Notes under the pieces: model-generated
The model's input: only the letters and a program-made list of their open reading frames with translations
The model's database searches: none
Told to the model about the DNA's origin: nothing
Position numbers and translations under genes: made by a program
Part shown: in pieces, positions 36,021 to 56,202 of the stretch
Position numbering within the stretch: the stretch's first letter is position 1
Layout of the letters: every line of letters begins with the position of its first letter
NCBI GenBank assembly: GCA_963751455.1
Contig: CAVVUN010000015.1
Span: 672,001 to 736,000, forward strand
Source: Nitrospirota bacterium
GTDB lineage: Bacteria > Nitrospirota > UBA9217
Direction of reading: 5' to 3'
DNA: 64,000 nt

Positions 36021-36098
36021 GTCCCCATCGTCTAGCCCGGCCCAGGACACCGCCCTTTCACGGCGATAACGGGGGTTCGAATCCCCCTGGGGACGCCA
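36021..36098 (+). tRNA. tRNA-Glu (TTC), integration target
   Basis: Anticodon loop CTTTCAC, GGTTCGAATCC T-arm, CCA end. Confidence 0.95.
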
Positions 36099-37428
36099 AT
36101 TTACTTCTGTAACCCACGGATTTCTTAATCAGATTTTCCGTGGGTTTTCTTGTTTCTGGCCTGTTGTGAATGTCTTGTGAATGAATTTCTGTAACACTCC
36201 CGCCGTGCATCTTCCGCAGCATCTCTACTGATCGCTGAACATACTTTTTCGACATCCCTGACGTGCTCTGACCGGCCATCATTTCCATGTCCTTCTCACT
36301 GTGCCCGTTGAGTGCGTACTGCGTCATCGTCGTGTGTTTGGTTGCATTGTACACGTTGACATAAGGAACGCCGGCGCGTTTGCAGGCACGCTTCCAGATG
36401 TCATTCACAACCCAGTTGGAATACCGGGTGCCGAGTTCGTTCGGGAAAGCGATCTCTCGACCAAAGCGGCCTTGGAGAATTGAGGTATCAAAGCGAGGAT
36501 GAAGCGGAATCACGTATTCCTTTCGGTTCTTTCTCGTTTTCAGACTTCGATCAAAATCCAGACTATTCTCAATCCAGACGGTCATTGCCTTCAAATCGAA
36601 GTGCCGCACATCCAGGGCGCAGGCCTCGGACGGCCGCACAGGATGCTTAATGAGAAAGTCGATAATCGCATGATGAACCGGGTTCGTGATAGAAGCGAAC
36701 GCCTTGTCCCGGTCCTCGATCGGCATGACGCGAACCAGCTTCTCGCTGAGTACAATCGGGTCGAAGATCGGAACGATGAAATCACGCTTCATTTTGTGGA
36801 GCCAGTTACAGAAGCCGCGGAGCTGATCCATCACGTTCTTGACCGCCTTATCTGAAAGCGGCTGATCTTTATGGCCTCCGAATGGGATCCGGTATACCTC
36901 AACGAGGTGCTTCTGGAAGCGGGCGATGTCCATTGTCTCGATCTCGAGCATGTTCCGTTCGCTGAAGAATGGGATGAAATGATCCTCGCAATACTGCTCG
37001 ATCTTTCGAATATAGGAGAGCGCCCGTTTCGGTTTCCTCGAGCGAATGTCGCTCAGCCAGGTGATTTTATCAGGCCCGGGATCTGCCGTTTGAAAAAGGA
37101 ACTTCCCTTTGTATTCGTCCAGCTCAGAAGCAAGGTATTTTCTGATATCGAACCGCCGATGCTCAGTCTTGCACACGTCAAGATCGGTTCGGATACTCTC
37201 AATGACTCCATAGGCGAGACTATAACTCGAGAACATATGCCCGGTCTTGTAATACCGGCTGATCACGTAGGGCTTGTGGGTGACTTTATCGTAAAAGAAG
37301 ATGTAGACCTTATCGGGTTTTGTTTGGCAGGTAGGACATATTAAAGCAGGTGCTTTTCCGACAAAGAGCTCCTTGAACTTTCCGGCGCAGACAGGACACA
37401 CTTCGCGGGTACGGACTTGTCCGCTCAT
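36058..37428 (-). CDS. Tyrosine integrase with N-terminal CxxC/CxxC zinc ribbon; reads through attL into the tRNA
   Basis: VRPSEACAL (Arg I), K, YNATKH, MAGQS, KKY; GGAGG RBS before ATG 37428. Confidence 0.88.
   Translation of the reverse strand: MSGQVRTREVCPVCAGKFKELFVGKAPALICPTCQTKPDKVYIFFYDKVTHKPYVISRYYKTGHMFSSYSLAYGVIESIRTDLDVCKTEHRRFDIRKYLASELDEYKGKFLFQTADPGPDKITWLSDIRSRKPKRALSYIRKIEQYCEDHFIPFFSERNMLEIETMDIARFQKHLVEVYRIPFGGHKDQPLSDKAVKNVMDQLRGFCNWLHKMKRDFIVPIFDPIVLSEKLVRVMPIEDRDKAFASITNPVHHAIIDFLIKHPVRPSEACALDVRHFDLKAMTVWIENSLDFDRSLKTRKNRKEYVIPLHPRFDTSILQGRFGREIAFPNELGTRYSNWVVNDIWKRACKRAGVPYVNVYNATKHTTMTQYALNGHSEKDMEMMAGQSTSGMSKKYVQRSVEMLRKMHGGSVTEIHSQDIHNRPETRKPTENLIKKSVGYRSKLASPGGFEPPLSP
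36164..36185 (+). repeat. Arm-type integrase-binding repeat (left)
   Basis: TTGTGAATGTCTTGTGAATGAA; copy with one mismatch at 56075-56096. Confidence 0.75.
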
Positions 37429-37666
37429 GTTATGGCCCCCCTCCTCAGTCTTCTGGTGGGGGTGATTGTAGGCTATGTCCACGCCTAAAGTCAAGCTGCC
37501 GTCCTCGATTGTCCTCAACCGCACTGGATTTGGAATCCAGCGGGGGATTTTAGAAATCGCAAATTCAAAGAGTTACGACCCTTATGCCACCTGTATGCTC
37601 GCGACCTTTTTACTGAAACCCGCTGGCCATTCGCCGTAATTACCGTCCATCTTTCAATATTGAGTT

Positions 37667-39223
37667 CTAGACGGTTCTATCCGACCCTATCACCTGTGAA
37701 GTTGCACCCAGCTGTATGAGCGCCTGGTTTGCATTGAGTGCTCCGGCGATCGCGGTAGCCCAGATGTTACCGCCGGCCTTCGCAGTATCAGCTCTGATCT
37801 CCATTGACGCGATAAGCGCCCTCACCGCCAATTGGGCCTGCTGCGCAAGTATCTGCGTCTGGAACTCAGCTGCCCCTTTCGTAAGTCCTGCGACGGCCAC
37901 CCCGACATCCGCACGCGCCTTCTGCAGTCCGACCTCTGCCGAGTACGCCCCGACCTTGGCCCCGAACGCAGAACCTTTCGCGGCTATCACCGAGGCAAGC
38001 CCTTCGGCCTTGGCTTTGAGCGCCTGCATATACGAGTCGAATTGCTTTAAGATAGCCATGTTCTTCTCTGCCGTGGCCTTGAGTTTTTCAACCTGCATCA
38101 TGGCGTCCGTTTTAGCGTATTCAAGGCTGAGTCCGTAATCGGTCTTTTCCTTGTCAAGCTTGGCCGTAAACGCCTTTAAAAGCATCTCGTTCTTGGAAAT
38201 CTGATGCCCTAAAAGGGCAAGCTGCACATCAGCAGCCTTTATGAGCGCCGATACCCGTGCAGCATACTTGGATATCCATGCGTTATAGAAGCCGAGAGAA
38301 AATTCGAAGACCGACCGCATGGCCGTCAGCGCCCGATTCTTCACCTGGTCGTAATGCTGGACCTCGACAGCCAGGACCTGAAGCATGCTCGACGTGGTGA
38401 ACTGCTGGTTCTGCAGGCTCATCTTTGCCTGGTCTTCGGCTACCGACCGGGACTCGTCCATTTTCTTATACCCATACTCGGTTTCGAATGCAGTGACTGT
38501 CTGTTTAAGAGTGCCCTGCGGCAGATCCCACCCAAAACGCGCATGATCATCGGCCATCTTCACGACCGTACGCTGCCGGATAAGTTCGTCACGCTCGGAC
38601 ATCCGATCCCATATCTGTCGCTCAACCGTGGGGTTGATACCCGTTACGCCGGCGGCCATGTCCGCAGTAAGCTTCGCATAGAGTGCGGTTGCGCTTATTG
38701 ACGAAAGGCTCTCGTTCTCTGCCTGGTATAGGCTGTCCTTATACGAGGTGATCGCGTCCTGGATAACGGTCATATCGTCCGACATCTTGATATCATTAAG
38801 GCTATCGGGATCAAAAAGGTCATCCGGGTTCGGTAAATCGATTTCTTTAAAATCCTTCAGGTCTTCCGTTGTCGGCGGCGCGTCGACTGTCTTGATATTA
38901 AGTGAGTCGTACGGATCCAGCGTGCCAGAAGGAGTTGGCGGCGTAGCACCGTTAAAGTCAATAGCTCCGATCTGCGACTCCTGCTGTGCGGTGTCAAGAT
39001 TGGCCCGGACAGTAATCGTCGTTCTGGGGTCGCTGATCAGCGTCTCCGGACTCGGCGGCGTCCATTGAAGCGCCGGAATCTCTACATTCGGCAGGAATAA
39101 TGAGGTTGATATCTGCTGCAGGGCTGACAGAAACTGCGCTGCGTTATCTACGTTTTCCGTTACATTCTGGTTGAGCGTTGCAAGCCGCTCGCTAACCGCC
39201 GCATTGACTTCTTCAACTGACAT
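37667..39223 (-). CDS. ~520-aa Ala-rich coiled-coil protein, possibly virion-associated
   Basis: Long helical ORF with GGAGG RBS, downstream of the terS-like gene; function is inferred only. Confidence 0.55.
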   Translation of the reverse strand: MSVEEVNAAVSERLATLNQNVTENVDNAAQFLSALQQISTSLFLPNVEIPALQWTPPSPETLISDPRTTITVRANLDTAQQESQIGAIDFNGATPPTPSGTLDPYDSLNIKTVDAPPTTEDLKDFKEIDLPNPDDLFDPDSLNDIKMSDDMTVIQDAITSYKDSLYQAENESLSSISATALYAKLTADMAAGVTGINPTVERQIWDRMSERDELIRQRTVVKMADDHARFGWDLPQGTLKQTVTAFETEYGYKKMDESRSVAEDQAKMSLQNQQFTTSSMLQVLAVEVQHYDQVKNRALTAMRSVFEFSLGFYNAWISKYAARVSALIKAADVQLALLGHQISKNEMLLKAFTAKLDKEKTDYGLSLEYAKTDAMMQVEKLKATAEKNMAILKQFDSYMQALKAKAEGLASVIAAKGSAFGAKVGAYSAEVGLQKARADVGVAVAGLTKGAAEFQTQILAQQAQLAVRALIASMEIRADTAKAGGNIWATAIAGALNANQALIQLGATSQVIGSDRTV

Positions 39224-39629
39224 ATACACCTCCATTTAATGTTGCGTTTTGTTAACATCTTCAGCCTTACTCAACGGGTCCGACGCGCTGCCAGGCAACC
39301 CGCTACTGCCCATGTCATCTAGGCAATAAATCTGAGATTTTCACATGAACTATATTTAGCTGCGACCTTAACAAACCTTAACAACCTCACTGCTTCAAGA
39401 GTCGGAACGTTAGCTTTTGTTAACAGGCCATTGGTTTCCGACCATTTCAGACAAAGGCGACTTGATCCCTGGTTGCGAGCCGTACACGATTCCACATCTT
39501 CTCGATAAAAATATCGGTAAATATCGGTTTCAAAGCTCACTAAGTCGAGAATCTTTCACGTTAATTTCGTGGCAACGAGTTTTAAACAATGCGGCCAGTG
39601 ACTCTCCAAAGTGTCGGTTTTTCTCCGGG

Positions 39630-39899
39630 TCAGTCCTCGTTTCCCACCTTGTCCGACTTCCCGATGAAAGCAAGCTCTTCGTCGGTCACATGCATTCCTT
39701 TTCGGAGATAACCTTCGATCAACGCTCTCCGTACCCGCGGTCTGTTCCGGACCAGGCATTGCTTGCTGCGCGCAGTTGATCTCTTGTAGCCGGCATCCAG
39801 CATAGCGCCCGTATAACACTCGCCGTCGAGAAGGGCCTGCACGAGCTTCCGCTCTTTTTCGGAGAGGGTCTCAATTGTCTTGGGTTTGTCATTGACCAT
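39630..39899 (-). CDS. Terminase small subunit-like HTH protein
   Basis: LSEKERKLV..LL.G...T.AM.DAGY...TA resembles the TerS N-terminal LTxKQ..F...AA..AGYS..TA pattern; GAGG RBS. Confidence 0.55.
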   Translation of the reverse strand: MVNDKPKTIETLSEKERKLVQALLDGECYTGAMLDAGYKRSTARSKQCLVRNRPRVRRALIEGYLRKGMHVTDEELAFIGKSDKVGNED

Positions 39900-40071: not shown

Positions 40072-40341
40072 TCAGACCTCAACTTGCTCAAATTCGGATT
40101 CTTGCCGCACCGGAAAGGATACAATGGCATTCGGCCTTGCCGTGCCTGCGAGCTCTGGCCGGCCTTCCAGCCTTGCGACGATCGTTGGGATCTTGTCCAT
40201 GATCGCCTGTACCTCAAGGGCCACGTCTTCGGGCAAACCAAAACTAGACCTGGCTCGAGCAAGGTTCAGTTGGGCCTTTAAAAGACACTGGATCTGAAAA
40301 CGTCTTGCCGCTTCGCCTAAAGTTGTCATTTCTTCCCCCAC
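40072..40341 (-). CDS. Hypothetical protein of the element
   Basis: Co-oriented with and closely packed after the CHC2 gene. Confidence 0.4.
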   Translation of the reverse strand: MGEEMTTLGEAARRFQIQCLLKAQLNLARARSSFGLPEDVALEVQAIMDKIPTIVARLEGRPELAGTARPNAIVSFPVRQESEFEQVEV

Positions 40342-40359: not shown

Positions 40360-40944
40360 TTATTGAAGTGCCTGTACCGCTTCTGGAAAGGTTGCCCCGT
40401 ATAATTTCCGGTAAACGTCGATCGTGTCCGCTGTCTTGCCGCAAGAGAAGCAGTAGGCGAAATTATTCTTGATGAACATGCTCGGCCTGTGGTCTTCATG
40501 AAAGAGGCAGAGAGCCATTCCGCGGCGCGCATCAATGAAATTATCTATCGGGTATGCTTTCGCTCGCTCGATCATGTCAGGCGTGACGGTGTCTTGTTTC
40601 GGTTTCTGTCCGAATGCTTCGAGCCCCTTTTCGAGCAGATAATCACGCTCTCGCTTTAATTTATCCTTGTTCTTCATCAGTCTGGCTACGCGGTCCGCTA
40701 TCATGTGGCCGCTCATCAAATTTGTTTTGTGCTTCTCATAGCTTATCGATGCATCGAGCAGATGGTCTTGAATTTCTGCGATCTGTTCCATTAGAGCGAA
40801 AATCCGCAACCATTCCCCCTCGCGGGCCATCTCGTTTTTATGTTCGTGAATCCGCGCGCGGACTCTCGGCATATCTACAGCGTTTCTCCACTTTGTGAGC
40901 GCTGCATCACTTATCACCATTTCCTGATATTCGAGGTCGGTCAT
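40360..40944 (-). CDS. CHC2 zinc-finger protein (primase Zn-binding domain, no TOPRIM)
   Basis: CLFHEDHRPSM...YCFSCG...DTID......TF.EAV..L. Confidence 0.85.
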   Translation of the reverse strand: MTDLEYQEMVISDAALTKWRNAVDMPRVRARIHEHKNEMAREGEWLRIFALMEQIAEIQDHLLDASISYEKHKTNLMSGHMIADRVARLMKNKDKLKRERDYLLEKGLEAFGQKPKQDTVTPDMIERAKAYPIDNFIDARRGMALCLFHEDHRPSMFIKNNFAYCFSCGKTADTIDVYRKLYGATFPEAVQALQ

Positions 40945-40966: not shown

Positions 40967-41812
40967 TCAGCTTTTCATGGTGCATCTGTCTGTATTCCGG
41001 CTCAATTGTTCTTTCCCTGAGATCCTGAGATAAGGTCCTATCTTCGTGACGTTCACCTTCTTGTTCTTCGCTCCTGTAGCTCGGCACTTCGCAACCTTCA
41101 GAACTGCGTTGTCTCCGCCATCAAGCCGCCATATAAAAACAACCGTGTCCGCTTCCTTGCCGATCATGCCCGAATCCCGGAGACTCCTGATCGTCGGTTC
41201 CTCTGCCGCTTCGCTTCTATTCGTGTGAACGATCAAGACAATGATCAGATTTTCGTTTATCGCCAACAATTTGAGCTTCCGGCATATCCGGCCCAGATCG
41301 TTCGACAGGTTCCCGGTTTCTACCTGGTCGGACAAATAGTGGAGGTGGTCTATAAAAACGGCGTGAATCGTTTTATATTTCAGCTTTGCCTCCCTGATTC
41401 GTTCGCCGATCCAAGTCAACGTGCTCATCTCAAGTTCTGCCGGTAACATAAAATACGGTACTGCCTCGCCGAATTTTGCTAGAAATTCATCCGGCCTTTC
41501 TTCATAACTAAACCACAGGCATCCTGCGTCCTGTTCTGAAAAATTATTTGTCAGTGTACGAGCTAAAAGTGTTTTCCCTTCTCCCTCATCCCCGCTCAGG
41601 ATTACGAGCTGCCCGCCGCGGCAATCCCGGATATGATCGTCAAGGCCCGGGATCTTGGTTCTGAGGACTATTGTCGGTTCGAACTTCTTTTCAGCGTGGA
41701 GCTGATCAACCTTATCCCAGGAGGTAATCACCCGACCGGGTCCGCAATAGCTCTTGAGTTCCGCGTCTGCCTTTCGGCGTTCGTTGTCTTTGATGATCTC
41801 TTCAGGGTTCAT
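40967..41812 (-). CDS. DnaB-like SF4 helicase (C-terminal ATPase domain only)
   Basis: GDEGEGKT, FSYE, FIDHLH, LKLLA, LRDSGMIGKEADTV, KVAKCR. Confidence 0.88.
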   Translation of the reverse strand: MNPEEIIKDNERRKADAELKSYCGPGRVITSWDKVDQLHAEKKFEPTIVLRTKIPGLDDHIRDCRGGQLVILSGDEGEGKTLLARTLTNNFSEQDAGCLWFSYEERPDEFLAKFGEAVPYFMLPAELEMSTLTWIGERIREAKLKYKTIHAVFIDHLHYLSDQVETGNLSNDLGRICRKLKLLAINENLIIVLIVHTNRSEAAEEPTIRSLRDSGMIGKEADTVVFIWRLDGGDNAVLKVAKCRATGAKNKKVNVTKIGPYLRISGKEQLSRNTDRCTMKS

Positions 41813-42987
41813 GCGTATTGCCTCTTGTATCCGGGAACCATGCTGCTCTGTGATTCCTGCCTTTCAGGATTCACATGCTCCTTGTAAATATGAATCTTAT
41901 TCTTCCCGGTACCGCTTACGATAAACCGCACAGCGTCCTTAATTCCGAACCGCGGCTTTGTCGCTGCAAAATTACGAGCCGCCAAAATAGCGTTATCCTG
42001 TTCCTCGATATTTAGGCCGTTGAAAGCCGCTGCTGCTTCCTGCTTAGAACCCTTACGCCCGTCTTCTCTCGCTGGGTACGCCGTCCAGAATAATAGAAAC
42101 TTGTCGCTGTATTGCGGGTCTCCCTGTTCTGTCGGCTTTTTTGGTGTTCGTGTCTTCTGGCGCCTTTGGCGTTCGGGCCCCGTGACCTGGTGAGTTCGGC
42201 CGGCTTTCGTGGGATTCGCGTCTGTCTCTGATCCGGACAAAATAAGACTCTGTGCGTGCGCAGGAGCTAAATTTACAGGCTCTGTTCCATCAAGACGTAA
42301 AGAGATATCAGGTTTGCCCTTTGATTCGGTCTTTTCACGATCGATATCAGGCAGCGTTGAACCGTCTTCCGGTGAAACGCATTCTTTTGTTTGTTGTATA
42401 AGTGTATATTGTGGTCCCGGTTTTCCGTTACTGCTGTCCGGTTTTCCGTTACTACCTACAGCTGAGTAACGCTTTTCCGTTACAGTAACGGTTTTCCGTG
42501 ACTTCCCCTTTTGGGAGATGTTTTTCCACTTCGTATAGTCTTTTTGAAAGCCTACTTTTGCTCCTGATCGTGTCAGGATATTTCTCTCGCAGAGATCCTT
42601 GAAGGCCTCATATACCCGCTGCTTTTTAAGGCCGGTTTTTTCAATAAACTGCTCGTATGCAATCCAATCAAGCTTCTTGTCCCATCCATAAGTTTTCCGG
42701 AAAACGACCATCAGTATTCGCCAGCCATGGCCACTGATTTTCACCCTGGCAAGAGCTTCAAGGATCTCATCGGCGATCTTCGTATAGCCGTTCTGAAGTT
42801 GAGGGCTTGCACCCATCCTCATTTCCGATTCTGGTGCCCCTGCTTTGATTGCCAGCCGTGAAGAATCTATCTCTGGCAGCGGTGGTAGAAGGGCGCCGAT
42901 CTCCGACACTGCCCGTCCTTCTTTCATGGCACTAAGCGCCCAGTGCGGGAGGTGGAATCTATCATGATGTTCATCTCTGGCCAGCAT
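41809..42987 (-). CDS. Lambda O-like phage replication initiator
   Basis: NGYTKIA.EILEAL....S....RI...V.RKTYGW.KK.DWI...QF...TG; C-terminal FW..YP...K..A motif; GGAGGTG RBS. Confidence 0.85.
   Translation of the reverse strand: MLARDEHHDRFHLPHWALSAMKEGRAVSEIGALLPPLPEIDSSRLAIKAGAPESEMRMGASPQLQNGYTKIADEILEALARVKISGHGWRILMVVFRKTYGWDKKLDWIAYEQFIEKTGLKKQRVYEAFKDLCERNILTRSGAKVGFQKDYTKWKNISQKGKSRKTVTVTEKRYSAVGSNGKPDSSNGKPGPQYTLIQQTKECVSPEDGSTLPDIDREKTESKGKPDISLRLDGTEPVNLAPAHAQSLILSGSETDANPTKAGRTHQVTGPERQRRQKTRTPKKPTEQGDPQYSDKFLLFWTAYPAREDGRKGSKQEAAAAFNGLNIEEQDNAILAARNFAATKPRFGIKDAVRFIVSGTGKNKIHIYKEHVNPERQESQSSMVPGYKRQYA
42417..42502. repeat. Iteron array, probable replication origin within the O-like gene
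   Basis: Four TTTTCCGT(T/G)AC units, the first two exact CCGGTTTTCCGTTACT 21 bp apart, next to an AT-rich tract at 42381-42410. Confidence 0.8.
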
Positions 42988-42994: not shown

Positions 42995-43234
42995 TCACCT
43001 CCTCGCAGCATACATCTTCGCACGCAAGACCTTATAGGCTGCGATAAAATCTTGGATCGGCACGCTTTCGTTCCCGTTGTATTTAGCGATGATAGCATTA
43101 ACTTCGTCAGAGGAGGCGTGAACGAAAACTGACAGATCCCGGTCAACTTCGAGGTTAGGCGCTTTTCGGGTGATTGCGAAGATCGCGGAGGACAGAAAGA
43201 TATCTCTTGTCTTGAACTGTTGGCTGGTAGGCAT
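42995..43234 (-). CDS. DUF5659-like small phage protein
   Basis: F.TRDIFLSSA...F...Y.....V....F...YK.LR pattern; AAGGAG RBS; first gene of the replication operon. Confidence 0.55.
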   Translation of the reverse strand: MPTSQQFKTRDIFLSSAIFAITRKAPNLEVDRDLSVFVHASSDEVNAIIAKYNGNESVPIQDFIAAYKVLRAKMYAARR

Positions 43235-43299: not shown

Positions 43300-43955
43300 G
43301 CGGGAGCTCGACAACGAGGAATTATCGTGAGTTGTCGATACTCCGAGCGTGGCTGCTACTGCGAGTCGCTGAGCGGCTTCGCCTTATCGGTGCCAAGTAC
43401 TCCGGATCCGATGGCCTGTATTTGCCGAGCGGCGCTCGGATTCGCGTTGCCGTCGACCACTGCGAGACCTGATTCGATCGGCGAAAAATATCATTGTTTC
43501 CCGTGTACCGCAGGAGCACTATTTCGGCGAGCCCTATGGGTCGTCGCCCTCGGTGCGGAGCCAAATTCGGTAGTCCGCACTTTCCAATTCTCTCTGAGCC
43601 CTGAGTGTTTTGGGGAATCATGCCGGAAGGGAGCCCCGCGTCCGGGGGAATCCACTTTCGAGTCAATGAGCCCTGCTCCTGGGAAGTCAAAAAGAACATA
43701 ATCTCTGCGTTCAAAAAAACAGGGTAGCCCACCAAGTAATACGTGTGACAGCACGTAGAGAAGCTTGAGCTTCTGCCTGGTGAACTACCCTGAATTTTTG
43801 ATGAGATCGCTGTCACGACCATAGTCCTCAAGACCCTTTTGCCGTACTATTGGGAGCGGCAAGGCCAAAAAAAAAGCCAGTTCAAAATTCCCTTACGGGA
43901 CTTGAACTGGCTCGTGTGTGCGAGGTGCAGTTAGTAATTTCTATTCAATTGTGAA
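43300..43955 (-). ncRNA. Structured leader RNA of the replication operon
   Basis: Many hairpins, two stem+U-tract terminators, two loop/target complementarities, long-range CAGGAGCA/TGCTCCTG pairing. Confidence 0.55.
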
Positions 43956-46580: not shown

Positions 46581-49500
46581 TCATTCCCCTAAGTCTGGCA
46601 AAAAGAAAGTGCGTTCCGATTCTGAGTATTCCCCATACTCCTTCTCGCGGTCCCAAATGCGCAGCCGTATAAAGAAGGCGAGCTTGCGCCCTAACCGTTC
46701 CATTGCGTCGGTGAGCAGCTCCTGATCGATCATGGTCGCCGTGCCGCAGCGCGTCGAACCTCCCTTCGGGTACAGCGGAGTCCAATTGTCGTTCCATATC
46801 CGAGTTCTCGAGGCAATCTTCCCGTCGGATGCGATACAGTCGATACTCTCCCGTGTACATCGGATTTCGGTTTTGGGAACCGTATAAGAGGCGGGAACCT
46901 TCAGCCCTATGGACAAATAGTCGCTTTGCCATGTACCAAACGGTATTGGTATAAGGGAATTGCAGACAGCAACCTCGTCACCCGTTTTACCTCCAGAGCT
47001 TGCTTCCTCGATCGTGATCTCTTCTGGCGGCCCCTTGAGTTCGAAAGTGTCATTAACAAACAGTAATAAATTTTTTTCGTAGAGGTAGGCACTATCAGGT
47101 AGTTCATAATCAGGCGTTATGAGGTGGGCACTGAGGGTAAGGTCGGCATACTTCTGCACCAATGACGTTACTGGCGTATGGAGCGACACGAGCATCATGC
47201 CTTCAGCGCGTGCTGTCTGCACGAGCTCGCGGACGATAGGCGAGAAATTAGCGCCGGGAGCGCAGAATCTTTCAGGGAAGTCCGAGAGCCACACCGGCCT
47301 TGCGACAGGTTCGACATCGAAGAGACCTGCAATCCCGTGAACGATGTCGACGCAAGAGCCTTCCGCGATCCTCTGGGGCATACGCAACTCGCTCACGGCA
47401 TAAGCCAGAGTCCGCAGATAAGCGGAGCGATAGACCTCGCTCATACGCTGCCAGTACTGGCCAATGATTCCCGCACGTGCGTCTGATACGTTGTCGAAAT
47501 AATACGGGTAGCGCGTGTAGTGCGTGCCCAGCTTGTCTCGTAAGGTTTTCCACTCATAGGCCCAGTGCTGGAGAAAGGGGTAGCCGCTCAAGAGTTCCAG
47601 CTTTGTCAGATTGTTCATGAGGATCGGTGGAACATGCGCGGTCTTGTGCTCCTCGAAGTAGCTATCGCTCTCGAAGTCGGCCGGAGCCCGTCCCGAGTGA
47701 GCCTGGCGCCATCCGCCGATGCCGTGCCCCTGTCCATAGGTCCGCTCCAGAATGATGTCGGCGAGAATCGAAGGGCAATGGAGGCGCGATGCGAGCACCG
47801 TGCGCAAGGGTCTACCGTCTGGCGATGTCAGGAAGACGATCGTGAGGATCTGACAGACTTCAGACTCGGTATTACACTGATCGAGATAGTCCAAAAGCGC
47901 GTCCTCCGTTGAGGACCGCGTCCCCGGATCATTGAGAAGGTTGCGGATTTCCTTGGCCGTTCTCCAGCGCGACATTGGCACTGGCCATTTCAGCCGCTCG
48001 AAAAGGAAGGAAAGCGCGAGAGGGGCCGAGGTTGCTAGGAACCATGGTGTCGCCGGGATCGGCTGCTCTCGAACCTCCTCAACCAACGTGTCAACGAAGG
48101 CAGCCGTGATCTTGTCGGCAAGTTCCACCTGCCCGACGAGCATCAGGAAGCGCACCAAGTATTTGTAACCAATGACGAAACTGTAGCGTCGGCGTCGGTA
48201 ATAAGGAAGGGGCACCGACGTGTCCTTGATGTATTGGAGCCAGCGATCCGGATAGTGCTTTGCAGCGAGCCTAATTCGCGTCATTATTTGAGCATCTGAT
48301 TCATAGTAGCTCCAGCCATGGCGATGAATGTGAGCTTTGACGAGCCATGGGTATGCAGCGTCCTTACCTTCGACAGCGAGGCTCACGAGGAAAGCTTCGT
48401 CTAGGACTTCCTCAGCGCTGTAGGTTGTTTCGCTCGTGTCGAAATAGGAGAGGATCGATTGCAGAGCTTTTGATGTTTTGCCCTGGCTCTTCCAGTGATG
48501 GAGCCACTTCGCCATGAATTCCCTGCGGCTCCTGTAATGAAGGGGCACCGCTGCTTTAGCGACGGCGGCGAAATCCTCATAGCTGAATGATGTGGGATCG
48601 ACCTTAGCAGCCTCTTTCTCCTGCTCGGAAAGCTCTTCTTCCTTAGTCTCTTTGATTTCGAGGCCAACTTTGGGCGGTCGGCCTAGAAAGACATTCTGAT
48701 TTTCTAGAAGCTCTTGGGCGGGCTGTTCATTGACCGCTCGGCCCTCGAGAACCCCTAGAGTTCGCTCGTCTAGGAATGTGCGGGCCAGTGCAGCACCTTG
48801 CGGAGATTTGAGATCCATAATCTTCGCGCATTCGTTCAGACACTCGTCGGCATAGGAATATTCGTCCGCCGAAAGGTGATGTCTATAGATGGATGGCAAG
48901 TGGTCGGGTGCAACCTTCGCCACGACTTCGATAAGTTCAGAACGCACGTGATTCGTATCGTCGCCGTCTGTGAATTCCGTGATCATCTCGATAATCGGGA
49001 CGAGCGTTTCGACGTGTGTCCGCGCGACAGCCGGTTTCCTCGCGCTCAACTCGACAACGGCATCGAGCACGTCCATCGCGTGGAGGTCTTTATGCGAGCC
49101 ATATCCGACAAGGCATTCGGCAGCGTGTGCGAGAAACTCGGCCTGTCTTCCATCCTCGTAGAGAAGCGCCATGTTTGCGAGTTCCGTCCAGCGCCCTGAA
49201 CGCTCGCTGAAATCCGTCACCTTCCCTGACAGCGCTTTCGCCTCGTCACCAAGAAGCACCGCCACACCATCTTTATCGAGGAGAGGAATCCTGTTTCCCA
49301 CATTACGTGTCGCCCAGATCGTGTCAGACCAATGGTCGGATTGGCGCGCTATGCTCAGCTCCGAGACAGGCACCCTAGTATTGCTGGGATCGGAAAGTCC
49401 AAGGAAATGAAGATCGACACCGATACGCCGGAGAGCCTCGCTGAAGGCTCGATATTGTGCGGCTTCTTTTTCGGGAGATGGACCCCAATGGACAGGTTCC

Positions 49501-52412
49501 AGATCAGCAGTAGCCGCATACACGGCTGAGAAGGTTGGAACAAGGCGGCCTGCTGCAATGTCCCGTGCAATCTCTTGGAGTTTTGCCGTTCCCTGCGGTA
49601 GCCATCCCAGATCGGCGCTGCCGAGACCCGGATGGATCATTGAATAATCGCCGCCCTTCGCACAAAACCCGATGTACAGAGCGGTCCAAAACACGTCGTA
49701 AAAGAAGGATATGACGTCCGGGTTCTCTCCGAGTGAATAGTGCTCCCGGATGAGGTTGTTGGGCACCGGAGGGATATACACATCTATCTTTGCGTCGCGA
49801 TCGCGCCAGAGGAAGAAGCATGCGGCAAAGGCCGAGAGGGACTCGTTACCGAGAGGAACGAGTTCTCTGACATCCACGCCTTTGAAACTGCCCGCCCGTA
49901 TGAGCGCGTCGTGGATTAACCGCCGCTGATCGTTCCACTTGGCGCCGCCTAGCGTTTTGCGGATAAGCTGAAGCCCCTCGATGTTTTGCGCATCACCAAG
50001 CAGACGGATGAACCTCGAGACATGGGGCTCTGGCTTCTTGAAGCCGCGCGCATAGTTTAGCGTGCGCCGCACTGTCTCCTTATCCATCAGCGCACTAACC
50101 GAGAGGAGGTGATCCGAAAGCTCCGTGAATTCCCGCTCGGGACGGTGCCGCAGCACGATCCATGCATTGACGCGGCGGGCCAGTTCATTGAGGCATGCTG
50201 GCAAGATCTGAAGTGACATTTCTTTTGGCCCGAGTCGGGCGAGTTGTGTTACTTCGCTGTCGGTCAAATTGTGGATGTCGTCTAGAAGATTCAGCGTCTG
50301 CTGACGGTTGTCGGAAACCGCAAGCGCAGTCGCTCGGTAAGCGGCAAAATCACTCGATTGAAACTCGCGGGCGTTTGAAACGCGGGTCTTCAGACTGCGA
50401 AGAAATACTGTTCGCGACAAGTCTGCGTCTTTGAAGGTCTTCTCTTCAGCGACGGCGAGTATATTTTCAATCTGCTGATCGGGCCAGCCCTTCGCGAAGG
50501 ATTCGACGACCCAATCCCGCGTTGCGCCTACGAACAAATCTTCGAAATGGCCTGCTTGCGCCCCTGCAAGCCATAGCCAGCCCCATCGCCAGTATTCAGG
50601 CGCATCATTCGCGAGCCAGTTGATGATCTTGGGCAGGAGTGCTTGATAACTTTCCGCATGGTCATCCCGCTCCCGTACCCATGCGAAGATGCTCGAGTGG
50701 AAAGGGACCATGCCGACATTGCGTGGCTCCAACAGGTGGTCGATCTGGCTGAAGTCCCCTAGCACCTGCCTTATGCCGAGGCTTGGCCAGAAGAAGTCCG
50801 ATCCCGCGAGCATGTGGAGAGCGTTCTTGGCATCCGCGCTGAGGTGAACCCAGAGCCCCCGATAGTAGGTACGGATATCGCCATCCGGACACGGCGGGAG
50901 CAATTGAATTTCCTCCGCAGACGTTGGGCGGCCTGCGCGGATAACACCCTCGTATGCGTAAATCAAATGCAGCGGGTGGCCCTGGCTGATATTAAAAAAC
51001 GCTGTCGCGATCTCGTCGATCATTTCAGAACGCCGCTCGGGAGGCGGATCAAACCGGAAGATGAGTGGACGCGCCTTGAACTGCTGCACCACCCAGCGGT
51101 GGACCGCGACCTCGTCCATACGCGGAATCTCGCTCCAGTCATCGTCATTCGCGATCGTCAGCAGCTTGCCGGGCAGCTGCTCGTCACTGACGCGCTGCGT
51201 TCCGACGATAAGATTGACATTTGGCGGTAGCGGGAGCAGTTCGTTGAAGAGGTGATTGAGTTGGTCGACGCGCTGCGTGTCGCGCCAAACGTGATCGAGT
51301 CCATCGACGATGATATAAAGCCGCTGACCTTTGCCGGCGAGGTTGGTTGCAGCAATCCCGATGGCGGCCCGCAACTCGCTAGGATCACCCTTGACGCCGG
51401 CCATGGCTTCAGGATGGCGCACATAGAGCTGATCCATTAGCGAGGTCGAAATTTCGATAAAAGAGCTGCGGTTGGAACTCGAGTCCTCCGCTGACAAAAA
51501 GTAGTGGTGTCGCGTTATGGCCGCGCCTTCCTTTTGAAGCTCCTGGGTCAGATAGCTGAGGTAGGTGCTCTTCCCGCGCCCTGGCGTTCCCCAAAGGATT
51601 GTGATCGGATTGTCGTCCCTCGCGATGCGTGCACGAAAGGTCTTGTGGAAGGCCTCGCTCGGCGGGCTGTAGCCGTCGAGGACGATAAAATCCTGTCGGA
51701 TAGGTTGCGGGCGGCGCTTCGTAATGAGCTGTACAAGATGCTCCCGCAGAATATGTCCATCGGGTTCAGGCTGGTTTTTGCGGGTCGCCCAACGACGTAC
51801 GCTCTCGCGGAAAAGAAGCCAACCCGCCGAATCAGTGTCTGTAGGTACGAGCTGATCGCGAAGATAGTCTTCGTATCTGTCGAGGTCCGGCATACCTCCT
51901 AAGAAATCGAACGTACTGAAGAATGTTTTAGCCTCGGCGGCGCCTCCGCATGCGCTCTCAACTGACTCGCGAAATTCCTTTGGTAGGAGGTCAAGGTCGA
52001 CCCGCATGCCTTTCAGGCACTTTGCGAACTCCCCAGACGGTATGCGGTTTGTTTTAAGACCAGCACTGTGGATTGGACCCATCGCTGCCACACGGGCAAG
52101 GGACTTCGCCCACTTTTCGAGCATCGCCGTCCCTTTTTCAGTTTTGGCGAGAAGCCAGTCCCAATCCAGCTCGTAGCGGCCGGGGTCGACCGTGAACTTG
52201 ACCTGTACGAGCTCGTAGGAACCATCTTTACGTGCAGCCACAACGTCGTCGAGCGCTCGGTAAGCCGTGTCGTCGGCCTCGAGCAGCACCCACGCGTAGA
52301 GCTCAGGGTCTCGGTACTGGCGAATAAGCACCTCGATACCGACGAGGTCTTGGTACTCGAAAGCTGCTCTTGTTATCGCGGCGGGCTTTATCCGGGATTT
52401 TGCCATTGTCAT
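46581..52412 (-). CDS. PD-(D/E)xK nuclease - STAND/NACHT NTPase - helical sensor protein (Avs-like anti-phage candidate)
   Basis: N-terminal FEYQD...LDDVV...VQVK; Walker A GTPGRGKST; Walker B YIIVDGLD; GHPL; long helical C-terminal region; intact 1943 aa. Confidence 0.8.
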   Translation of the reverse strand: MTMAKSRIKPAAITRAAFEYQDLVGIEVLIRQYRDPELYAWVLLEADDTAYRALDDVVAARKDGSYELVQVKFTVDPGRYELDWDWLLAKTEKGTAMLEKWAKSLARVAAMGPIHSAGLKTNRIPSGEFAKCLKGMRVDLDLLPKEFRESVESACGGAAEAKTFFSTFDFLGGMPDLDRYEDYLRDQLVPTDTDSAGWLLFRESVRRWATRKNQPEPDGHILREHLVQLITKRRPQPIRQDFIVLDGYSPPSEAFHKTFRARIARDDNPITILWGTPGRGKSTYLSYLTQELQKEGAAITRHHYFLSAEDSSSNRSSFIEISTSLMDQLYVRHPEAMAGVKGDPSELRAAIGIAATNLAGKGQRLYIIVDGLDHVWRDTQRVDQLNHLFNELLPLPPNVNLIVGTQRVSDEQLPGKLLTIANDDDWSEIPRMDEVAVHRWVVQQFKARPLIFRFDPPPERRSEMIDEIATAFFNISQGHPLHLIYAYEGVIRAGRPTSAEEIQLLPPCPDGDIRTYYRGLWVHLSADAKNALHMLAGSDFFWPSLGIRQVLGDFSQIDHLLEPRNVGMVPFHSSIFAWVRERDDHAESYQALLPKIINWLANDAPEYWRWGWLWLAGAQAGHFEDLFVGATRDWVVESFAKGWPDQQIENILAVAEEKTFKDADLSRTVFLRSLKTRVSNAREFQSSDFAAYRATALAVSDNRQQTLNLLDDIHNLTDSEVTQLARLGPKEMSLQILPACLNELARRVNAWIVLRHRPEREFTELSDHLLSVSALMDKETVRRTLNYARGFKKPEPHVSRFIRLLGDAQNIEGLQLIRKTLGGAKWNDQRRLIHDALIRAGSFKGVDVRELVPLGNESLSAFAACFFLWRDRDAKIDVYIPPVPNNLIREHYSLGENPDVISFFYDVFWTALYIGFCAKGGDYSMIHPGLGSADLGWLPQGTAKLQEIARDIAAGRLVPTFSAVYAATADLEPVHWGPSPEKEAAQYRAFSEALRRIGVDLHFLGLSDPSNTRVPVSELSIARQSDHWSDTIWATRNVGNRIPLLDKDGVAVLLGDEAKALSGKVTDFSERSGRWTELANMALLYEDGRQAEFLAHAAECLVGYGSHKDLHAMDVLDAVVELSARKPAVARTHVETLVPIIEMITEFTDGDDTNHVRSELIEVVAKVAPDHLPSIYRHHLSADEYSYADECLNECAKIMDLKSPQGAALARTFLDERTLGVLEGRAVNEQPAQELLENQNVFLGRPPKVGLEIKETKEEELSEQEKEAAKVDPTSFSYEDFAAVAKAAVPLHYRSRREFMAKWLHHWKSQGKTSKALQSILSYFDTSETTYSAEEVLDEAFLVSLAVEGKDAAYPWLVKAHIHRHGWSYYESDAQIMTRIRLAAKHYPDRWLQYIKDTSVPLPYYRRRRYSFVIGYKYLVRFLMLVGQVELADKITAAFVDTLVEEVREQPIPATPWFLATSAPLALSFLFERLKWPVPMSRWRTAKEIRNLLNDPGTRSSTEDALLDYLDQCNTESEVCQILTIVFLTSPDGRPLRTVLASRLHCPSILADIILERTYGQGHGIGGWRQAHSGRAPADFESDSYFEEHKTAHVPPILMNNLTKLELLSGYPFLQHWAYEWKTLRDKLGTHYTRYPYYFDNVSDARAGIIGQYWQRMSEVYRSAYLRTLAYAVSELRMPQRIAEGSCVDIVHGIAGLFDVEPVARPVWLSDFPERFCAPGANFSPIVRELVQTARAEGMMLVSLHTPVTSLVQKYADLTLSAHLITPDYELPDSAYLYEKNLLLFVNDTFELKGPPEEITIEEASSGGKTGDEVAVCNSLIPIPFGTWQSDYLSIGLKVPASYTVPKTEIRCTRESIDCIASDGKIASRTRIWNDNWTPLYPKGGSTRCGTATMIDQELLTDAMERLGRKLAFFIRLRIWDREKEYGEYSESERTFFLPDLGE

Positions 52413-52562: not shown

Positions 52563-53198
52563 CTATAACCCAAATTGCAGCCGTGAAACTGCATCGATCT
52601 TCTTTTCATCGGATGTGTGGAGATACTTTTCGGTCGTCCGAATGTGACTGTGGCCTAAAAGTTCTTGAACTGTTCGCAGGTCAACGCCCTTGTCCAAAAG
52701 GGATGTAGCAAAGGTATGTCTCGTCGTGTGCGGCGTGATCCGCTTCGTGATGAGCGCCGCCTTCTTTACCCTCTTCATAAGGCAGTCAACGGCCTTGTGC
52801 GTGAGGGGCACCGGTTCGCAGTTGCCGCGCTCACCCAGGGTGAAGAAGAGCGGCCGGGCCGTGGCCGGTGCGCCGGCTCTGTCCTCGAAAAGATGAGGCA
52901 TACTGCTCTTGAGGGCCTTCTGATAATCGAGGACCGCCTCCACAACGTCGTTGGTGAGAGCAACGCGCCGTTGCTTCTTTCCCTTGCCGATCACGTCTAC
53001 AACCGTCTGATTCCGATATGTGGTCAGGTTCTCGATACTCAGGCTGCATACCTCGGCCTTTCTGAGGCCCGAGGAAAGCATAAGGAGTAGCAGGGCATAA
53101 TCACGCTTGCCCTTGAGGGTCCGCCGATCCGGGACCCGGAGGAGGGCTTTGACTTCATCCGCAGTCAAAAAATCCGATGGTCTCTTTATCTTTTCCAT
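52563..53198 (-). CDS. Minimal tyrosine recombinase (catalytic domain only, resolvase-like)
   Basis: RD.ALL.L...GLRKAE, GKGKK.R, HTTRHTFAT, LLGHSHIRTT.KY. Confidence 0.9.
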   Translation of the reverse strand: MEKIKRPSDFLTADEVKALLRVPDRRTLKGKRDYALLLLMLSSGLRKAEVCSLSIENLTTYRNQTVVDVIGKGKKQRRVALTNDVVEAVLDYQKALKSSMPHLFEDRAGAPATARPLFFTLGERGNCEPVPLTHKAVDCLMKRVKKAALITKRITPHTTRHTFATSLLDKGVDLRTVQELLGHSHIRTTEKYLHTSDEKKIDAVSRLQFGL

Positions 53199-53259: not shown

Positions 53260-53637
53260 TTACGCTGCCTGGACCTTTAAAATTTTATCATCGACTTTTT
53301 GAAGTTGTTCAACGATCTCAGTCATGAGCAAATGCAAACCCATACTTTCATTGTCGCCGGTCCCCTCCCGGACCTCATCCGACGTGACGGCAGCGTGGAG
53401 ATAATTCAATTTCCTGATAGCATAGTAAAGTTGGTCATGGGCTTCACTTAATACCGTCTTTCGCTCCTGTGTTCTTTCATCCGGTCGTTTGGCCGCCTCT
53501 TTAGCGGCCAGATGTTTCTTTACCGCTGGCAGCTTCCCTAACTCGCTCACTTCATCAAATGCGGTTCGGGCTTTTTCTACAGACTGCTCATACCGTTTCA
53601 CTTGATCATCTTTGACACTTGCTTTTTTCGTTTTCAT
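53260..53637 (-). CDS. Hypothetical helical protein
   Basis: AGGGGG RBS; lies between the phd-like gene and the recombinase. Confidence 0.6.
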   Translation of the reverse strand: MKTKKASVKDDQVKRYEQSVEKARTAFDEVSELGKLPAVKKHLAAKEAAKRPDERTQERKTVLSEAHDQLYYAIRKLNYLHAAVTSDEVREGTGDNESMGLHLLMTEIVEQLQKVDDKILKVQAA

Positions 53638-53658: not shown

Positions 53659-53832
53659 TTATTTTTTCTTTGGCTGAAACTCAAAATCTTCCTCCGGTGC
53701 CGGGCCAATAACGGCAATCGGCTTTCCATTGAGTGTAACGACAAGTTTTTTCCCTGTCTTGTTCACTTCTGATAAAATCTTCTTCGCATCGTGTTTAAGT
53801 TCAGAAATCGTGATGAACTTCAGCGGTGACAT
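53659..53832 (-). CDS. Phd/YefM family antitoxin-like protein (57 aa, below ORF-track cutoff)
   Basis: Translated by hand: MSPLKFITISELKHDAKKILSEVNKTGKKLVVTLNGKPIAVIGP...; GGAGGTG RBS. Confidence 0.8.
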   Translation of the reverse strand: MSPLKFITISELKHDAKKILSEVNKTGKKLVVTLNGKPIAVIGPAPEEDFEFQPKKK

Positions 53833-53887: not shown

Positions 53888-54120
53888 GGGGAATAAAATC
53901 CGAGAATGAGAAGCCATTTTTCAGGGGCATCCTTGGATAAGCTTAAAACAGTGATTGCTGGACCGGCCCCCAGTGGAGCTTGAAATCTAATGGAGGATAA
54001 TAAAAAAGCAGATTGGACAGAGAAGGAAGAAAAAATTTAAAAGATTCTTGCAAAATATGCGGGTATCTATTAATGTGGATCCGAAGATAGCATTTGCGTC
54101 TCTGTAAAGAGCTGACAAAA

Positions 54121-55149
54121 ATGATCACACCTCAAACTCATCGCGCTCGTGAAATTCTCCAAGCTGTTGGTCGCGCATATCCGTCTGCCTGGCAAATGGC
54201 CGATCGTGTTAATGCAAACCGCGATATAGCCCTGCCAGGTTGCCCGCGGTGGTGCTATCTGCCGGTGCATGCAGCGCGTGCTATTACGGAGGATGGCGGA
54301 CAGAATCCAGCGTCGATCGATCGCATGCATCATGTCGCTATTATCGGCGCTCTTGCCGCCTGGCGCATGGGGCAGCAAATCATCCGATATGACGGCTCTC
54401 TCTACAATTCGCTCGTTGAAACGCCGATAACAGGCGATTTGCCCGCAGAGCTCCTGTATCGGTTGCCCGCATGGTGCCTGTACATCGAGACCCCTGGCCT
54501 CTCCTGGATGGGCCGCCAACTGCATGGTTTTTTTGTTCACCTCGACTGGGACAAACGAGGCCATAATGAATTACGCTTTCTTCTTGATACCGTAGAAACA
54601 ACGGATGCACTGTTCGACTTCAGGTACGGTCTGATTCCGAATCCGCTTATACTCGGAAACGGTACTCTTGCGGACGCCCTTGAACGTGTAGTTGCTTTCG
54701 GAAAACTAAATGCGGAAAAAGCAGGAATTGAGCTTGAGCTGAGCAGCACTGTCGATCAAATGGCGGAGTCACTCTCCACGGCACTCTCGCCGCTTATCTC
54801 GCTCACTCTTTATCTGTGCAGCGACTCTCCGGACTGGGATCTGGAGCCGCCCAGGAACCCGACCCCGGTAAAGACCAAGCGAGGACTGCGTACATTTCCC
54901 GTCGCACAGCCAAGGATATGGGACGTAGGCGTCAGAATTGGAGCGGCTCTGAGAAAGGCCGTAGCCTCTCCCCGGATGGAAGAGGTTGCAGAGGCCGAAC
55001 ATGCATCGCCTCGCGCTCATATTCGCCGCGCTCACTGGCACACTTATCTGACCGGTACCGGTCGCAGCAAGCGAGTGCTGAAATGGCTGCATCCTATGCT
55101 TGTTAAGACTGATACCGTGGAAGATTTCCGGCAACGATACGCAGTGTGA
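54121..55149 (+). CDS. AcrVA2/FinQ family protein
   Basis: AAWR...I.RYD, LPAWCLYIE, GFF, LYLCS..PD, G.RIG, PRAHIRRAHWH.Y.TGTG...KW..P, colinear with AcrVA2 as I recall it (RPHIRRGHWHGYWQGTG). Confidence 0.8.
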   Translation: MITPQTHRAREILQAVGRAYPSAWQMADRVNANRDIALPGCPRWCYLPVHAARAITEDGGQNPASIDRMHHVAIIGALAAWRMGQQIIRYDGSLYNSLVETPITGDLPAELLYRLPAWCLYIETPGLSWMGRQLHGFFVHLDWDKRGHNELRFLLDTVETTDALFDFRYGLIPNPLILGNGTLADALERVVAFGKLNAEKAGIELELSSTVDQMAESLSTALSPLISLTLYLCSDSPDWDLEPPRNPTPVKTKRGLRTFPVAQPRIWDVGVRIGAALRKAVASPRMEEVAEAEHASPRAHIRRAHWHTYLTGTGRSKRVLKWLHPMLVKTDTVEDFRQRYAV

Positions 55150-55167
55150 AAGAAAGGGAATCGTCAG

Positions 55168-55527
55168 ATGAAAAGAGATCCTGAACTCATCAGAAATATC
55201 ATGCTTGAAGTTGAAAAAGTGCCCCCGGGAAAGCATGTGACAGCATTGTCTTTTGACGATATCGATAACCAGACTATCATTCAACATGTGGTGCTTTTGA
55301 TAGAAGCAGGACTGTTGAGCGGCAACTTTACGAAAGTGATATCCGGTCCAGCGGGTTTTAGGATTACCGGCTTGACATGGTTTGGACACGACTTTGTCGA
55401 CGCCGTGCGTGAGCATTCCATTTGGAAAGTGATCAAAGATAAAGTTTTGAAACCGGCTGGCTCATGGACATTTGGCTTGGTTACAGAGGTAGCAAAAGAG
55501 GAACTGAAGAATCGTTTGGGTATCTGA
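55168..55527 (+). CDS. DUF2513 domain protein
   Basis: MKRD.ELIR.I.L.VE, H..LL.EAGL, LTW.GHDF.DAVR...IW..IK. Confidence 0.8.
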   Translation: MKRDPELIRNIMLEVEKVPPGKHVTALSFDDIDNQTIIQHVVLLIEAGLLSGNFTKVISGPAGFRITGLTWFGHDFVDAVREHSIWKVIKDKVLKPAGSWTFGLVTEVAKEELKNRLGI

Positions 55528-55677
55528 AACCAGGGTTCGCAGAGGGCACGGAACAGCACGCAGTCAAGGCCTCCGGATGAGAGGGAAACAGCAGCTTCGA
55601 GATCTGATAGGGCCAAGAAAACGGCGGGCTGCCGGGGCAACGAACAACCCGCCAACAGTTCAAATTCTGGCCTTATG

Positions 55678-55923
55678 CTATCTGCTATCCCGTACTTTTT
55701 TCGCCTCTTCGTGATGATGCAAAATAATGGCTGCAATTCTGTGCAAGTGTACGCTTACCTCGTCCATGTTCAGATCTGGGCTCAAGTGAAGAGTAATCGT
55801 CTCCGATTTCAATTCCTCTATTGTCGGTTCAAACCGAAACCTTAAAACCAAGACACCTTGTTCAGACTGCACTGACACTTCTGATAATCGATGCATTTTG
55901 TTAAATTCTGATAGTCGATCCAT
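55678..55923 (-). CDS. Hypothetical protein
   Basis: AGGAGG RBS before ATG 55923. Confidence 0.5.
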   Translation of the reverse strand: MDRLSEFNKMHRLSEVSVQSEQGVLVLRFRFEPTIEELKSETITLHLSPDLNMDEVSVHLHRIAAIILHHHEEAKKVRDSR

Positions 55924-56202
55924 ATTTCCCTCCTGAATTTGATGTTCACATTGAATCGTGATTGCCATGCATTCTAGCAGAGAGAAGCAAACTGTTCGGG
56001 CCAGACGAAAGCGAATCCAGCAGGGATTGCGGTTGGGGAGCTTCGGGCGATGAGGCGGCTCTGATCGAGTCATCTTGTGAACGTCTTGTGAATGAAAAAA
56101 AGGTCTATCCGTATGTTCTTTTTGCTCTTAACTGCTGGAAATATTGACTTTTTCTATTCTTCCTCAGGGGGTTCGAATCCCCCTGGGGACGCCAATCAAT
56201 TC

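Follow-up and report, generated by a model that had tools for sequence, protein, structure and literature searches.

A 20.1-kb island lies in the 64,000-nucleotide (nt) stretch of a Nitrospirota genome that was analysed here (assembly GCA_963751455.1, contig CAVVUN010000015.1, positions 672,001 to 736,000; this whole stretch is referred to as the window, and its own numbering is used). The island is real and intact, and belongs to a satellite-like family that is apparently undescribed; one of its genes encodes a 522-amino-acid (aa) protein homologous to the solved alpha-helical tail tube of a short-tailed phage. An earlier note, made from the letters of the window, had proposed an undescribed satellite-like type, and this is supported by the existence of independent capsid-less islands with the same skeleton in other genomes. 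The literature on DUF5659, on satellites that carry an ejection protein or a podovirus tail tube, and on Nitrospirota satellites was searched and the family is not described there; the SatelliteFinder element tables were outside the scope of that search. The explanation favoured here, held at a little short of an even chance, is that the island is a satellite resembling the phage-inducible chromosomal islands (PICIs), that its helper is an F116/A1002-like short-tailed phage, and that it builds its own tail tube into the hijacked particles. Membership of a satellite family is the firmer part of this explanation and is quite probable; given such a family, it is moderately probable that the island's own particles make use of the tube.

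The boundaries are two identical (100%) 30-nt direct repeats at 36071-36100 and 56167-56196 (plus strand), the left and right att cores, which occur twice in the genome with no third copy. The left core is the 3' end of an intact tRNA-Glu(TTC) (36021-36098, plus strand), the integration target, and the right core is followed by a terminator-like hairpin (56203-56229). A short way inside each core is an 18-nt arm-like repeat, TTGTGAANGTCTTGTGAA, at 36164 and 56075 (two matches, 0.01 expected). The left arm-type repeat (36164-36185), which contains tandem TTGTGAA, and the right one (56075-56096), both on the plus strand, are putative arm sites, and the intact cores and arm repeats that the earlier note had claimed were both recovered. 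The tyrosine integrase (36058-37428, minus strand) is 456 aa long from its conserved start, carries N-terminal CxxC pairs and has homologues in six clusters at 74-80% identity. Its frame crosses the att core (36058-36100), stops inside the tRNA gene and is 17-39 aa longer than the six close homologues, so that its C-terminus would not be the same in the circular form as in the integrated one.

Twenty-nine open reading frames (ORFs) of the island, of at least about 55 aa, were scanned against Pfam, PHROGs and NCBIfam. The leftward run of genes that the earlier note had read was borne out by Pfam and PHROG matches, and comprises, on the minus strand, a DUF5659-like protein of 79 aa which serves as the family marker (42995-43234; E 3e-6), a lambda O-like initiator (41809-42927; Phage_rep_O, E 9e-26; start uncertain, either the ATG at 42927 or a position some 100 nt downstream), a DnaB-type helicase (40967-41812; DnaB_C, E 5e-20), a coiled-coil protein with a CHC2 zinc finger (40360-40944; E 5e-9), a small-terminase-like (TerS-like) helix-turn-helix (HTH) protein of 89 aa (39630-39899), the 522-aa ORF and the integrase. 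The helicase is 281 aa long and consists of the RecA core only; that it has no N-terminal domain had been overlooked, and it belongs to a conserved size class (267-293 aa), in which 14 further clusters are 66-85% identical to it. The CHC2 protein has only the zinc-binding domain of a primase and is 40-46% identical to proteins in two sibling islands. Between the CHC2 and TerS-like genes sits a small conserved ORF, o89 (40072-40341, minus strand), with 46-52% identity in three sibling islands and no family match. The TerS-like protein matches phrog_641 (E 7e-6) over residues 12-62 only (51 residues, the HTH), and is 42% identical to a 90-aa gene product of a sibling island. Four iterons, GTNACGGAAAANCG, with a central A-tract lie inside the O-like gene (42418-42502, minus strand) and are followed by an A+T-rich stretch; the pattern was derived from those four sites, with one further match in the window and 0.00 in shuffles, and the iteron site is likely to be the origin. 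Among the scanned ORFs no capsid, portal, large terminase (TerL), lysis, conjugation, CI or AlpA family was found, as had been claimed, and on coding frames the only ORFs longer than 250 aa are the integrase, the 522-aa ORF, DnaB, O, a STAND protein and an AcrVA2 homologue.

The 522-aa protein

The gene at 37667-39235 (minus strand) had been taken to encode a coiled-coil protein of about 520 aa, and no tail gene had been recognised in the island. Both points need correction: the ORF encodes a virion protein, a predicted alpha-helical tail-tube or DNA-conduit homologue, which matches phrog_10969 (E 3e-21), is orthologous to structural protein 4 of F116-like podophages and is linked by profile to the gp37 family of phage A1002. 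A tblastn search matched 37 phage records, 35 of them from Pseudomonas phages and mostly F116-like; the matched gene is annotated 'structural protein' in Epa33 and 8P, and identity to the F116-like proteins is 23-27%. There are 927 representatives related to the protein at E<=0.001, and a profile of 100 tube sequences recovers the phage proteins at E about 1e-155. The tube family profile also matches the 318-aa chain of PDB 26LA/44NX (E 7e-15), and the 318-residue protein of 44NX is gp37, which forms the dodecameric alpha-helical tail tube of podophage A1002 (PMC13730344).

Three domains are given for gp37, a fibre-dock (4-105), a nozzle-dock (106-186) and an inner channel (187-305) (PMC13730344), and via the profile island residues 198-296 align to gp37 109-207, the nozzle-dock block. 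The AlphaFold monomer (mean pLDDT 72) has an N-terminal helix, a low-confidence Pro-rich linker and helices at 202-233, 240-366 and 372-511, and in this predicted model the order of the helices is as the gp37 layout predicts. A fold search of BFVD gave an uncultured phage protein and an F116 protein as its two best matches. Both ends of the tube family profile are kept and about 98 central positions, in the channel helix, are missing, so the helix is about 100 residues shorter than in the 600-630-aa phage type; comparable shortening is present in many natural homologues of 400-460 aa. The channel would measure about 235 residues; that of gp37 has 119, and that of the 620-aa type would have about 335.

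A quick tree, in which many forks are open, places the island tube on a long branch beside three proteins of 412-436 aa (SH-aLRT 96) and apart from the prophage tubes of the phylum. As a single query it matched no viral contig and had no match in 60 relatives. The tube profile matches nine of 401 Nitrospirota genomes, two of them weakly. In family f17 capsid, head-closure and tube genes occur together with large ejection-type genes, and such clusters elsewhere in the phylum indicate that F116/A1002-type phages reach these hosts. A reading of the 522-aa protein as an ejection protein, suggested by F116-like gene order, was demoted because the solved homologue is a tail tube; it is kept as a caveat, and the protein is most safely labelled 'tail tube or ejected DNA conduit'.

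Related islands in Nitrospirota

Profile searches covered 401 genomes of the phylum Nitrospirota. The integrase profile matched in 17 of these, and scans of three contig collections added three loci, none of them close. Around the integrase matches lie several islands of 10-22 kb, a full prophage of 38 kb (G367, identified by eye) and some islands that are unrelated. A second profile, of nine aligned DUF5659-like proteins from the integrase-matched loci, gave 35 matches (eight being the profile's own seeds) at 34 loci in 24 of the 401 genomes, and all 34 loci were inspected. Eighteen are bounded by tRNA-end direct repeats of 24-55 nt that lie 5.6-21.7 kb apart; in the remaining 16 no second repeat copy was found within the 6-20 kb fetched, and several of these stop at a contig end. 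Islands of 48 kb (G034) and 11 kb (G149) share the integrase clade and, read by eye, lack the skeleton; they were not counted.

The common skeleton begins with cargo and a gene of 200-370 aa that matches no family; DUF5659 and a replication module come next, then in many cases a TerS-like HTH gene, and a tRNA-adjacent integrase. The replication module varies between siblings: O with the short DnaB, an HTH_36 Rep, a Lin1244 Rep with DnaB, a Phg_2220_C Rep with DnaB, and primase-helicases were all seen. With at least five different modules in use, the combination of O and DnaB, by which the earlier note had set the element apart from described satellites, is not supported as the mark of the type. 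Ten of the 18 att-bounded islands have a TerS-family match, in the HTH part only. A recognised virion gene is present in nine (tube in two, tape measure in four, one of these below the Pfam cut-off, TerL in two and a protease-capsid fusion in one), and no full portal match was seen in any of the 18. Of 52 ORFs of at least 200 aa that had not been scanned earlier, 31 were run against Pfam; the scan did not include the other 21, which are integrases, resolvases and a transposase. Two siblings, G032 and G011, carry further proteins which by eye resemble ejection or scaffold proteins and have no family match. Outside the 18, G063 carries a tape measure gene, and a metagenome locus (L014, 337-6442), whose left side is a contig end, has AlpA, PmgG and two P1-like tail genes on the same skeleton, which suggests a P1-type helper.

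Several orthologues are shared with three siblings. The 12,056-bp island G075:C39, at a tRNA-SeC, shares the Xer-like recombinase (87%), a zinc-finger ORF (43%), O (45%), the short DnaB (38%), CHC2 (46%) and o89 (52%), and has a more distant integrase. It also encodes a tube homologue (24% identity), which is located ahead of the replication module rather than after it; with the tube at another position beside the same module, a single deletion from one prophage cannot explain both islands. G032 (15,761 bp) has O, CHC2 and o89 in common with the island, and G011 (13,302 bp) has the Xer-like recombinase (83%), a Phd gene (55%), o89 (47%) and the 90-aa TerS-like gene (42%). The same-length orthologue in G011 indicates that the 89-aa gene is not a deletion stump. 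The proposal of the earlier note would fall if the closest relatives were full prophages from which the island derived by one large deletion, with no independent elements of its layout; among the readable genomes this was not seen, and independent capsid-less islands with the skeleton were found.

Some members were observed to differ in what they carry. A 9.6-kb island at a tRNA-SeC in G078:C1 has a protease-capsid fusion (L073:8161-10464) and no portal or TerL match among its scanned ORFs, while TerS and TerL occur without a capsid or portal match in two members (L029:14979-17774 and L038:16321-17754). The tRNA-SeC is a recurrent target, used by four att-bounded islands in four genomes (L062, L071, L073 and L078, from G016, G075, G078 and G011). 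In G011 the replication block is inverted relative to the integrase.

Interpretation and comparison with known satellites

Under the satellite explanation we infer the following cycle. Infection by a helper would relieve termination in a structured leader upstream of DUF5659 (described below), and the integrase would recombine the 30-nt cores, using the arm repeats, and excise the island from the tRNA-Glu. The O-like protein would bind the four iterons and load the island's short helicase, together with the CHC2 protein, after which the Xer-like recombinase would resolve multimers at a conserved 120-bp site. The short TerS-like protein would then deliver island DNA to the helper's terminase, and the island tube would replace the helper tube in island particles; it would probably also spoil helper tails, much as the PICI-like elements (PLEs) do with their own tape measure protein (TMP). 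The Avs-like STAND and AcrVA2-like cargo would protect both host and island.

Several observations weigh against this explanation. Queries of this genome for TerL (phrog_2) and capsid (phrog_267) gave no match and so revealed no resident helper. The TerS matches are limited to the HTH, and one frameshift splits the tube gene of G075:C39, possibly through an error of assembly, as an integrase in that assembly is split too. The closest relatives (integrase 74-80%, DnaB 66-85% identity) might be full prophages; the same integrase clade serves the 38-kb prophage in G367, and O with the short DnaB is present in a phage contig (L056). As to the tube itself, the 522-aa sequence alone does not reach the solved chain, a PDB search with it having given unrelated helical repeats only; Foldseek of the model against PDB returned nothing at E<=0.001, and the link to gp37 depends on a 99-position profile block. 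Tubes with a short channel, of 400-460 aa, are common, and the F116-like counterpart gene directly precedes large ejection-type genes, so the protein may be an ejected tunnel and not a standing tube.

A broader account, more tentative than the explanation above, is that this is a widespread Nitrospirota satellite family with one swappable slot for the helper's DNA-delivery or packaging part, and that the member studied here is switched by a C4-like RNA and not by a repressor. The slot would hold a tape measure in islands with long-tailed helpers, P1-type tail parts in those with myophage helpers and, in this island, a self-measuring alpha-helical tube for podophages. If true, this would be the first satellite to rebuild a podophage tail, and its particles would have a tube of the satellite's own length.

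It is rather unlikely that, within the same satellite family, the tube is a decoy which co-assembles with the tube or nozzle of an invading podophage, whereby dead particles result and the host is protected, the protein having no use in the island's own particles. Two related genomes do have a lone, intact tube gene of 614-615 aa with no other phage gene recognised nearby (L100:3874-5718 in G237:C82 and L105:1304-3151 in G231:C49); the two are near-identical, stand next to a gene of 1962 aa that belongs to no phage family and are possibly a domesticated anti-phage decoy, and they show that a tube gene can be retained on its own. Satellites are known to block tail assembly, through Tai (PMC11364771) and Rta (PMC12987554), and the long branch of the island tube and the other defence cargo would also fit. 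Neither Tai nor Rta is presented as a copy of a virion protein in the accounts given there, however, and the island tube has retained both ends and occupies the operon slot of the TerS-like gene, where siblings keep a tape measure, TerL or capsid gene, rather than standing among the cargo.

Improbable is the reading of the island as a decayed F116-like prophage, from which the blocks from TerL to nozzle and from ejection to lysis were lost and TerS, tube and integrase were kept by chance. The order of genes in Epa33 (terminase, head, tail, structural protein 4, lysis and a last gene on the same strand, read here as an integrase and recorded as hypothetical, 'Bbp50') would fit such a history; other genomes of the phylum commonly contain podophage modules in a degraded state, a full prophage belongs to the integrase clade, and the closest relatives might themselves be full prophages. 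Two clean deletions would nevertheless be needed, and tblastn found no remnant of the neighbouring podophage genes in the island. The siblings had already weakened this reading: the 89-aa TerS-like gene has its same-length orthologue in another island, a sibling tube gene lies elsewhere beside the same replication module, the island tube falls outside the group of the phylum's prophage tubes in the quick tree, and there are 18 small att-bounded islands with the skeleton, none with a full portal match.

Just as improbable is a self-replicating integrative defence island spread by ordinary transduction or DNA uptake, with the TerS-like protein a plain HTH regulator and the virion genes phage-derived passengers, which would agree with TerS matches restricted to the HTH, with nine of 18 islands lacking a recognised virion gene and with the highly varied slot content, but the slot genes are recurrently delivery or packaging parts (tape measure in five with G063 included, tube in two, TerL in two, P1-like tail in L014) and usually stand directly after the TerS-like gene, a position which chance capture would not favour.

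The island was compared with PICIs using the SatelliteFinder definition (PMC10085698). As in a PICI there is a tyrosine integrase with att sites at a tRNA, a predicted replication module, a gene that is TerS-like over its HTH and cargo within about 10-20 kb, and no lysis genes. The differences are that no AlpA, MerR or Stl regulator and no capsid-morphogenesis gene were found among the scanned ORFs, the latter being absent also from many Staphylococcus aureus pathogenicity islands (PMC10085698); that the integrase shares a strand with Rep and TerS and lies downstream of them; that an O-type initiator with iterons, an own short helicase and the CHC2 protein would take the place of a primase-replicase; and that a tail-tube homologue is carried, a tail gene being forbidden in the PICI model as set out in PMC10085698. 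By that definition the island, which would work like PICIs and PLEs, is not a PICI. Capsid-forming PICIs have their own capsid, portal, TerL and head-tail connectors, none of which was found among the scanned island ORFs, and TMP genes are present in some of them (PMC12987554). The components of P4-like satellites as defined in PMC10085698 (Psu, Delta, Sid, Ash and the alpha primase-helicase) were not found in the Pfam and PHROG scans.

The PLEs of Vibrio cholerae use a serine recombinase and a virulent myophage as helper. Like a PLE with the TAC-TMP-BhuB cassette, the island would be a capsid-less satellite encoding its own part of the tail core; PLE11 puts its own TMP and BhuB into chimeric virions (PMC12987554). 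In this island the part is a predicted alpha-helical tail tube of podophage type and not a tape measure, for which the island has no match, and the general scans of the island matched no PLE gene, though no search was aimed at PLE genes. The EPIPs of Mycolicibacterium are satellites of about 11 kb with TerS and a tape measure, and their particles differ in tail length from those of the helper (PMC12822802). The island likewise has a gene that is TerS-like over its HTH and a gene for a predicted tail part; unlike it, EPIPs have a serine integrase, an actinobacterial host and a long-tailed helper, no O/DnaB module figures in their description in PMC12822802, and a tape measure match is found in four of the 18 att-bounded siblings rather than in the island itself. 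The closest known counterparts of the island tube, A1002 gp37 (PDB 44NX/26LA) and F116-like structural protein 4 (phrog_10969), share with it the nozzle-dock block, the N-terminal helix, the Pro-rich linker and the long C-terminal channel helices. They differ in size (522 aa in the island, 318 in A1002 and 630 in F116-like phages), and the island tube is encoded without nozzle, adaptor, fibre or ejection genes.

Tail piracy by satellites was shown recently and, as presented in PMC12987554, only with tape measure proteins from long-tailed phages. If a satellite bears the tail tube of a podophage, such piracy would reach short-tailed phages as well, and it could be tested directly why a satellite brings a DNA conduit of its own, whether for escape from tail-targeting defence, sabotage of the helper or changed envelope reach. 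The family is a class which PICI detectors reject by design, because tail genes are forbidden components of the model (PMC10085698), and DUF5659 provides a usable marker for finding further members.

Leader, recombination site, cargo and flanking genes

Ahead of DUF5659 the island has a 1-kb noncoding leader, where most siblings hold the gene for a 200-370-aa protein. Its structured part (43713-43911, minus strand) comprises a terminator-like hairpin (43911-43867), two small hairpins (43835-43823 and 43820-43805) and a three-way junction with a U-tail (43792-43713). The C4 antisense RNA (RF01695) of P1 and the P4 CI RNA have three-way junction loops complementary to two upstream hairpin loops and lie ahead of a replication operon. 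The leader is C4/CI-like by architecture only: the loops of its junction, two in number, are complementary to those of the two small hairpins (over 6 and 8 nt), and each motif is found a single time in 1.1 kb; it has no Rfam match at E<=1 and no ash or icd gene was recognised. The c4 motifs are listed in PMC2864571. No homologue was found in viral contigs (by pattern), in 63 other family genomes (by a one-sequence model) or in the fetched loci (as DNA), so there is no covariation to draw on, and a second, downstream target for the loops was not found. The proposal in the earlier note that RNA rather than a repressor is in control stands in part. The segment 43701-43900 has the strongest fold of 100 segments of the island (z -6.8, next -4.4; 15 shuffles each) and the two loop-loop complementarities point the same way; with neither an Rfam match nor a homologue, and a protein gene at this place in most siblings, RNA control is plausible in this island and is not a family trait. 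The second-strongest folding segment (44101-44300, z -4.4) is upstream of the leader. Scans for promoters and terminators gave results close to chance and are not counted as evidence.

The other recombinase, which had been overlooked, is a Xer-like tyrosine recombinase consisting of the catalytic domain only (52563-53198, minus strand; 82-87% identity in three sibling islands). A conserved noncoding site (46418-46538), with an inverted pair and a third TGGGTMATA-like subsite, is present in four of 64 family genomes, and these are exactly the genomes whose islands carry the 82-87% Xer-like gene (copies at L029:7520-7638 and 18034-18152, L071:1003-1123 and L078:4590-4683). Judged by this co-occurrence it is likely to be a res-like target of the recombinase. 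In G078 two inverted copies flank a replication-TerL block, and both there and in this island the cargo genes lie between the recombinase and the site.

The cargo appears to combine defence and anti-defence, as had been proposed, with both assignments made by homology. The first is a STAND NTPase of 1943 aa with an N-terminal nuclease-like domain (46581-52412, minus strand), which is Avs-like in that it has only the nuclease-STAND layout in common with AVAST/Avs proteins (22.9 bits against Avs1b, for which the curated cut-off is 1500). The second is an AcrVA2 homologue (54094-55149, plus strand; phrog_6160; PDB 7ci1, E 2e-13), which is followed by a gene for a DUF2513 protein (55168-55527, plus strand). 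On the minus strand there are also two cargo ORFs of 125 and 188 aa with no family match (44604-45548), a zinc-finger ORF of 161 aa (45899-46384; 43% identity in G075:C39), an ORF of 125 aa with no useful match (53260-53637) and a Phd/YefM-fold protein without a toxin partner (53659-53832; 50-59% identity in four siblings), which is a candidate regulator. The DUF5659-like protein has a confident predicted structure, a small alpha/beta model, for which no structural match at Z>=5 was found.

Just beyond the right att core (57091-59903) lie genes for an MNT-HEPN pair, an AEP-TOTE primase and a helicase; they probably belong to a second island, older than this one, that uses the same site. To the left of the island, palindromic repeats of the host (imperfect inverted repeats) are present between tRNAs (35932-36008) and between serA and purA (34295-34357).

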